A DNA stretch of 58,936 bases, the filler included, from Dugesia japonica (lineage: Eukaryota): NCBI GenBank assembly GCA_001938525.1. It is 5 parts of 5 records of this genome, joined end to end, with 100 filler letters (N's around TTAATTAATTAA, not from the genome) between each part and the next. Parts side by side here need not be neighbours in the genome. Positions count along the whole stretch, not along the records: positions 1 to 10,183 come from MQRL01593536.1; 4 more parts are not named here. The stretch is one strand, 5' to 3'. The notes under the pieces were generated by a model. The model was not told the DNA's origin and ran no database searches. It saw only the letters and a program-made list of their open reading frames with translations. Shown here in pieces: positions 7,368 through 7,735 of the stretch. Positions within the stretch are counted from its first letter, which is position 1; every line of letters begins with the position of its first letter. The position numbers and the translations under genes were made by a program.

Positions 7368-7735
7368 TCAAACTCGGGAATTAGATTTGGTCTGGGTGCT
7401 CTTATCAATCATAAGGGGCTCCAGATAAGATTTCGTTTTTAAGACGAGGATATCTTTGACCAGTTTATTCTCACGGTCATGGCTGGACCGGATAATCTCG
7501 ACGAACGATTTTACCTGGGCTTTCCAGGCTCTTTCTTGGTCTTGCACCACCTTCATTTCCTCGCGGATGTTTGTACATTTCGTTTTGCATCGTTTTACCT
7601 TAGCGTTAGCTGTCGCGATTTCGGCCTCCCATCGTCTCTTAGCTAACTTATACAGGTCCTAGGTAATCTCCTTATCTTCACTATCTTCACGGAGCTTTTT
7701 GGTTGGGGCCGGTGTNNNNNNNNNNNNNNAATGCA
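7368..7735 (-). pseudogene. Cassette B (copy 1), ends IDKSTQTKSNSRV
   Basis: ttttag|TG CAT..., APTKKLREDS, LYKLAKRRWEA, WKAQVKSFVEIIRS, LEPLMIDKSTQT. One TAG in place of Trp and a small N gap. Confidence 0.8.

Follow-up and report, generated by a model that had tools for sequence, protein, structure and literature searches.

Did a repeated element of the planarian Dugesia japonica once encode a protein that bound the LC8 of its host? The question is raised by cassette B, a short reading frame present in three copies in the window (the whole stretch of 58,936 nucleotides analysed here, which is eukaryotic and AT-rich, with a GC content of 0.288), each copy of which carries close to its end a peptide of the LC8-binding type. 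Our best explanation, to which we give a probability of roughly one half, is that an element of high copy number, likely a long Gypsy-type LTR, carried cassette B as an accessory gene that has since decayed, and that the gene encoded a protein, predicted to be a coiled coil with a flexible tail, that likely bound LC8.

Three broken copies of a once constrained gene

A preliminary description had reported cassette B at three places on the minus strand with IDKSTQT, IDKGTQT and IDKTTQI as its C-termini, and the copies and peptides were found there (Table 1). The peptides do lie close to the end, but 6 residues in copy 1 (KSNSRV), 3 in copy 2 (SRP) and 2 in copy 3 (RN) still follow before the TGA stop; likewise, the canonical form (K/R)xTQT holds for copies 1 and 2 but not for copy 3, which has TQI (2/3). 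Identity to copy 1 is 56% for copy 2 and 48% for copy 3; in copy 1, 14 N occupy positions 7716-7729 near its start. All three copies in the window are pseudogenes and are dead. A changed genetic code was ruled out, since the premature stops use all three stop codons at differing positions.

Table 1. Positions of the cassettes, motifs and units, counted along the whole window.
Feature	Position	Strand	Remarks
Cassette B, copy 1	7368..7735	-	Acceptor-headed ORF, about 122 codons; premature stop at codon 26
Cassette B, copy 2	22795..23153	-	Premature stops at codons 20 and 88
Cassette B, copy 3	2712..3067	-	Premature stop at codon 26
LC8-type motif IDKSTQT, copy 1	7389..7409	-	K at +2
LC8-type motif IDKGTQT, copy 2	22827-22807	-	S at +2
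LC8-type motif variant IDKTTQI, copy 3	2741-2721	-	R at +2
Basic patch TKKLR, copy 1	7689..7703	-	K-K-x-R in 3/3 copies
Predicted single long helix	7410..7655	-	Heptad-like hydrophobic stripe; AlphaFold, heptad scan
Pyrimidine-rich tract and TAG	7736..7760	-	3' splice-acceptor-like; abuts TG of cassette B copy 1
Starts of cassette B	7735, 23153, 3067	-	Copies 1, 2 and 3; ATG at none
Cassette C, copy 1	6860..7242	-	Open 127-codon acceptor-headed ORF; long helix and acidic Trp-containing tail
Cassette C, other copies	starts 22652, 2581, 46321	-	
Cassette A, copy 1	7916..8324	-	ATG 8 nt past acceptor; frame change near 8100-8060
Cassette A, copy 2	23740 to about 23310	-	
Cassette D, copy 1	8494..8692	-	
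Cassette D, copy 2	about 24095-23898	-	
Complete unit with cassette B copy 2	22042..26214	-	4173 bp; TGTTGGGG...CCCCAACA; ATTT/ATTT flanks
Related unit without cassettes	26272..27804	-	1533 bp; similar ends; ATAT/ATAT flanks; 250-N gap
5' end and K/E-rich region, unit of copy 3	5700..6540	-	Homologous to 5' part of copy-2 unit
Conserved non-coding 3' end of unit	6605..6859	-	Closes in CCCCAACA; peak summed contig depth

The pattern of substitution supports the view that cassette B was once a real protein under purifying selection. Pairwise pS values of 0.91, 0.87 and 0.76 stand against pN values of 0.26, 0.31 and 0.33 (3/3 comparisons, with synonymous sites saturated), and among the 109-114 codons compared, third positions differ in 71-75 and second positions in 29-35. 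Cassettes C and D and both parts of cassette A gave pS of 0.70-1.0 against pN of 0.25-0.32. In the motif itself, I, D, K, T and Q are conserved among the three copies despite synonymous codon changes, and T+1 varies, with TQI in copy 3. Invariant columns number 44 of 111 across the alignment of the three copies and 9 of 11 in the motif block; the N-terminal block DLYxLAKRxWE also has 9 of 11, so that the motif block does not exceed this block in conservation, and permutation gave P values of 0.16 (11 columns) and 0.30 (8 columns) for a block as well conserved turning up anywhere in the protein. The hydrophobic LEPLxI just N-terminal of the motif equals it in conservation and could mark a structured interface.

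By scanning all six frames of the window, [KR].TQT was matched at 4 of 117,868 positions (2 in cassette B, 2 elsewhere), and D[KR].TQ[TI] gave 3 matches, all within cassette B. Residue shuffles of cassette B yield [KR].TQT in 0.36-0.54%, a frequency that is not a clean P value, because the motif was chosen post hoc and the copies are of common origin. The classical monopartite NLS pattern is K-(K/R)-x-(K/R). A basic TKK(R/L/I)R patch near the N-terminus, proposed earlier, is present at the same place in all three copies (TKKIR and TKKRR are the equivalents in the other two, near the start), but 31-61% of shuffles contain K[KR].[KR], and the patch by itself is therefore at chance level for the composition of B.

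A high-copy family with diverged transcripts

The element family is clearly of very high copy. Contigs matching positions 6400-8800 numbered 11,081 (run X1), 7526, 1316 and 1098 in four DNA runs, where summed contig depth is no measure of copy number. The stop of copy 1 is not typical of the family, because another base is carried in 6681 of 6742 of summed depth (51 contigs of run X1, among the 40 of 794 differences listed). At position 7400, the first base of the motif -2 codon, 96,603 of 98,656 of depth (80 contigs, among the differences listed) fits the Gly of copy 2. In 17 contigs of run X2, similarity to relatives stops at 7386, one codon past the motif.

In four RNA runs, with 6-26% of each run covered, partial read matches numbered 10, 133, 135 and 199; mean depth on cassette B reached up to about 8, read strand was inconsistent between cassettes, and none of these 10-199 reads per run was at least 99% alike or carried a splice joint. 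The reads reflect low transcription of diverged relatives and are silent on splicing or protein. A GC-rich stretch near the 3' end of the unit (6640-6720), without an Rfam match, had the highest summed contig depth and the most RNA reads.

Predicted structure and probable recognition by LC8

An AlphaFold model of B, made from the 3-row alignment with X at stops, consists of a single helix over residues 21-102, with block-mean pLDDT of 95-97 over residues 21-90. The last two blocks, which contain the motif, lie outside the helix, with mean pLDDT of 56 and 45 (from an alignment of 3 sequences). The best heptad register places 61% hydrophobic residues at a/d, compared with 14-39% in the other six, and the modelled helix is likely a coiled coil. 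The earlier placing of the motif after a predicted coiled coil agrees with this long amphipathic helix, which is seen upstream of it in both the sequence and the model.

Searches for homologs were carried out at several levels. A B profile compared with 5.8 billion proteins gave no match with an E of 0.01 or less, either among 588 candidates of like length or among 5421 longer ones; Pfam gave only sub-threshold matches, and Foldseek with the B model returned 0 matches. Neurotrophin-3, the best PDB sequence match, was rejected as a homolog with an E of 0.38. Among related loci sought by pattern, 0 of 149 metagenome-contig matches and 0 of 100 viral-contig matches were confirmed; the 3'-end DNA pattern of the unit had 0 matches in metagenome and viral contigs, and the ESM Atlas held no usable match for cassette C.

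Published peptides argue for recognition of the B tail. In Tables 1-2 of PMC6607443 (counted by eye), 7 of 66 peptides fit [KR]xTQT and none of the 43 non-binders does; since all 7 of these peptides bind LC8, the cassette B tail is probably an LC8 ligand as well. The rules given in the relevant part of that paper (polar at -4, with D favoured; large at -3; non-aromatic at -2; no internal proline) agree with all three copies, which have D at -4, K at -3 and S, G or T at -2; G at -2 is also found in the phage-display optimum VSRGTQTE. P, D or E is preferred, not required, at +2, where the copies have K, S and R; K or R at +2 occurs in none of the 7 [KR]xTQT binders, and S at +2 occurs in the binder SLC9A2 (KGTQTS). 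The TQI of copy 3 is an anchor variant also present in the binder ICE1 (PMC6607443). Judged on the tail peptides, binding is predicted to be best for copy 2 and weakest for copy 3.

The parallels drawn in the preliminary description to Bim (DKSTQT, among the binders of PMC6607443) and the rabies virus P protein (KSTQT; PMC2873379) were borne out in the cited parts of these papers. The core motif is shared by B with these two clients and with HPV E4 (DKQTQT) and SLC9A2, and the clients and B are further alike in D at -4 and K at -3, while the B motif may, like theirs, lie in an unstructured stretch (PMC6607443, PMC2873379). B differs from known clients in that two copies have K or R at +2, in its lack of homology beyond the motif, in its transposon-like origin and in binding that is predicted. 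Full-text literature searches, judged from listings and the openings of abstracts and reaching few subscription journals and neither Repbase nor supplements, found no transposon-encoded LC8 client with this motif.

Given that conservation is not focused on the motif (P 0.16), it must be considered whether B was a real accessory coiled coil in which LEPLxIDKxTQ was conserved otherwise, as a helix cap or as a binding interface for cassette C or some other partner, and in which the LC8 match is coincidental. The variation of T+1 and +2 in the unfavourable direction would agree with such a coincidence, as would the motif having been noticed post hoc among many ORFs and the many TQT peptides that fail to bind, a point stressed in PMC6607443. 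Against it, residues -4, -3, -1 and 0 all suit LC8 preferences, the shuffle chance is only 0.4-0.5%, the motif comes directly after the predicted helix, and the similarity to relatives in the 17 run X2 contigs ends one codon past it. We regard coincidence as rather unlikely, and an LC8-type motif in a previously undescribed accessory protein, seen in dead copies only, as a credible reading of the sequence.

A unit with ends like those of a long terminal repeat

The complete unit that holds copy 2 runs from a K/E-rich 5' region through cassettes D, A, B and C to the 3' end. By self-comparison, D, A, B and C follow one another in that order on the minus strand in copies 1 and 2; copy 3 comprises B and C, and at 46321 there is C by itself. 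Between the copy-3 and copy-2 units, the 5' parts align with a score of 299, compared with 196 +/- 15 (maximum 243) in 30 shuffles; the 5' end of the copy-1 unit is missing, as this unit is cut by a linker. Linkers at 10184-10283, 27987-28086, 37960-38059 and 49298-49397 each consist of 44 N, a 12-base AT palindrome and 44 N.

The terminal inverted repeat, with TG...CA ends, spans 8/8 bases in the copy-2 unit and 5 in the short unit. Both complete units (2/2) are bordered by 4-bp duplications (ATTT and ATAT) in AT-rich flanks, where four-base matches come more easily by chance. A(A/T)TAAA occurs soon after the cassette C stop in 3/3 ends examined, which is weak evidence in AT-rich DNA. By eye, neither a PBS nor a PPT was seen beside the unit ends, as expected of solo LTRs, and no gag-pol linked to the cassette unit was seen in the window. 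Overall, the unit is more likely than not a Gypsy-type solo LTR, and the earlier claim of an element-encoded protein gains from its LTR-like ends, its 4-bp duplication and the very high copy of the family.

The two units in question were inserted about 60 bp apart in an apparent repeat of about 80 bp, which suggests a target preference; the degenerate AT-rich tandem repeat (period of about 80 bp) surrounds them at 21960-22041, 26215-26271 and 27805-27900. The units of copies 1 and 3 stand head to tail, 64 bp apart. A shorter, cassette-free sub-type is found at 1-995, 1060-2084 and 26272-27804, two of which converge near 1000-1070, and a MITE-like insertion with 217-bp inverted arms that are 92% alike lies at 4530-5676 inside the copy-3 unit.

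These same ends would also suit a different carrier, in which B binds LC8 but the unit is a non-autonomous Ginger-like DNA element (with short terminal repeats, and moved by a Gypsy-like integrase) or an integrated small-virus-like cassette. Ginger1 and Ginger2 have TGT ends and a 4-bp duplication like the unit, and Ginger2 in particular shares its TGTT ends and AT-rich targets (PMC2836005, in the part that describes these families); an LTR of 4.2 kb holding four or five ORFs would be unusual, and PBS, PPT and linked gag-pol were none of them seen. The perfect inverted repeat of the unit is far shorter, however, at 8 bp against 40-270 bp in Ginger (PMC2836005). Pfam in 12 frames (the 5' half of the copy-2 unit and the short unit) found no family at E up to 0.05, and hence no integrase or transposase, where decay could hide one; Gypsy-type remnants are moreover present nearby. 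A Ginger-like or virus-like carrier is thus unlikely, and the LTR reading is kept below.

Splice-acceptor-like starts of the cassettes

The four cassettes (D, A, B and C) share one orientation, and each is provided with an acceptor-like site and a stop of its own. The starts of B and C (7735, 23153, 3067, 7242, 22652, 2581 and 46321, minus strand) read (T/C)AG followed directly by TG in 7/7 cases, compared with 21 of 239 acceptor-like minus-strand sites, and this same phase is held by two unrelated cassettes; the conserved frame of both is the one in which TG completes codon 1. A leader ending in A would allow splicing to create ATG at the B and C starts. In cassette A, both copies have ATG within 8 nt of the acceptor; in cassette D, just copy 1 has one, at the acceptor itself. 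Pattern scanning of the units found no conserved splice donor, a result that would suit a donor lying beyond a solo LTR but that also counts against the proposed splicing.

Drosophila gypsy env may be a precedent for an ATG made by splicing. The published account, in the part used here, reports a spliced env mRNA with a conserved acceptor and does not itself state that the ATG is made by splicing. A flatworm-type spliced leader ends in AUG, and one supplying the AUG here was rejected: the resulting frame closes in 0-30 codons at 7/7 starts. Descent of B and C as paralogs was likewise rejected, with an hhalign probability of 0.2%. The cassette C protein, whose frame is open in copy 1, has a helix over residues 8-90 followed by a conserved acidic Trp-containing tail, and is a candidate partner of B or a candidate activation-type tail. 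The start of cassette A (8316-8250 and 23739-23670, minus strand) has a pattern resembling a WW domain, a candidate that found no Pfam match and was set aside.

The acceptor-like sites and the AT-rich spacers resemble host introns, and together with the strong coding constraint they could be read as exons of an ordinary duplicated host gene. Such a gene would not be expected to end every cassette in its own stop or to have element-like unit ends, and the thousands of related contigs and the breakage of all copies in the window point the same way, making this reading highly improbable beside that of an element.

Other features of the window

A U2AF65-like RRM splicing-factor gene at 31261-32700 (plus strand) is apparently intronless, with three RRM stretches and an N gap. 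Pieces of a CBP/p300-type gene, whose introns are very short (about 42 nt in one case), lie at 38694-44352 (minus strand); the nearest relative is 78% identical, and an HSA-domain ORF is directly downstream. Degenerate Gypsy-type gag, protease and RT remnants were observed at 21200-21900 (plus), 33900-34200 (plus) and 49400-52050 (minus), and a stretch at 54200-54800 (plus) is, as we take it by eye, a degenerate Penelope-like RT remnant. The decayed ORFs at 47900-49300 and 57500-58936 (both minus) have no Pfam matches; one of them has an acidic stretch and one a 141-bp tandem duplication (57363-57653).

Proposed mode of action and its meaning

In the mechanism that we propose, one upstream leader would be common to a set of spliced mRNAs, one for each ORF, much as MMTV sag is expressed from the 3' LTR. 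At B and C the splice would complete the first codon, which would read ATG with a leader ending in A. Two B helices would pair in parallel as a weak coiled coil and set two D-K-x-T-Q-T strands side by side, which an LC8 homodimer would grip, stabilising the B dimer rather than tethering B to the dynein motor. Stabilising client dimers is the usual role of LC8, which is now generally viewed as a dimerisation hub and not a cargo adaptor (PMC6607443). More speculatively, the basic B dimer may act in the nucleus on element RNA or chromatin.

Three described systems allow parts of this layout to be compared. MMTV sag is an accessory ORF in a long LTR that is expressed by splicing (PMC3026287, in the relevant part), but the LTR of MMTV measures about 1.3 kb and contains a single ORF, whereas the cassette unit has 4.2 kb and four acceptor-headed ORFs and its LTR status is inferred. 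The C. elegans Gypsy element Cer1 makes CERV, a nuclear accessory protein, from a spliced mRNA (PMC10309623, in the relevant part), and so offers a precedent for a nuclear role; the RNA-export role of CERV is established, while B has about 120 residues that are mostly one helix, so that the likeness is one of description and no sequence relation is expected. Extra ORFs in LTR elements are already known (PMC7264820, PMC6431247), and among planarians the giant Gypsy element Burro has thousands of copies and accessory ORFs. Its internal region of up to 25 kb within a total of >30 kb implies LTRs of several kb; spliced ORFs inside the LTR are not described in the part of PMC6431247 drawn on here, and the likeness to the cassette unit is by description alone.

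An alternative role would have B bind LC8 not as a dimeriser, but as a decoy or recruiter against host transposon silencing, or travel on dynein into the nucleus. Against this, the known occurrence of Panoramix is in flies, and with one motif per chain and little RNA, B would make a poor sponge for abundant LC8. In its favour, LC8 in Drosophila drives the PICTS silencing complex to dimerise (PMC7861614, in the part cited), and the element family is of very high copy; the view of LC8 as a dimerisation hub speaks against a ride on dynein (PMC6607443). Both forms of this alternative are very improbable, and by analogy the silencing data suggest at most that a counter-silencing role of B may be considered. 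The fullest extension of our preferred reading, also a doubtful one, would make the multi-kb LTR an array of accessory genes with one leader, four acceptors and two splice-made starts, whose LC8-clamped nuclear coiled coil might protect or export element RNA through LC8, a hub of piRNA-guided silencing in flies.

The value of these findings is limited by the decay of the copies and by the lack of a found homolog, and expression of an intact copy is inferred only. The use of LC8 is well known for viral proteins, and if the predicted binding holds, virus-like engagement of the host would be extended to an accessory protein of a retrotransposon. The layout of the element, four small genes that are probably spliced separately in what is likely an LTR, may outweigh the motif in importance; if true, a high-copy invertebrate repeat would come to stand close to complex retroviruses in its strategy of gene expression.
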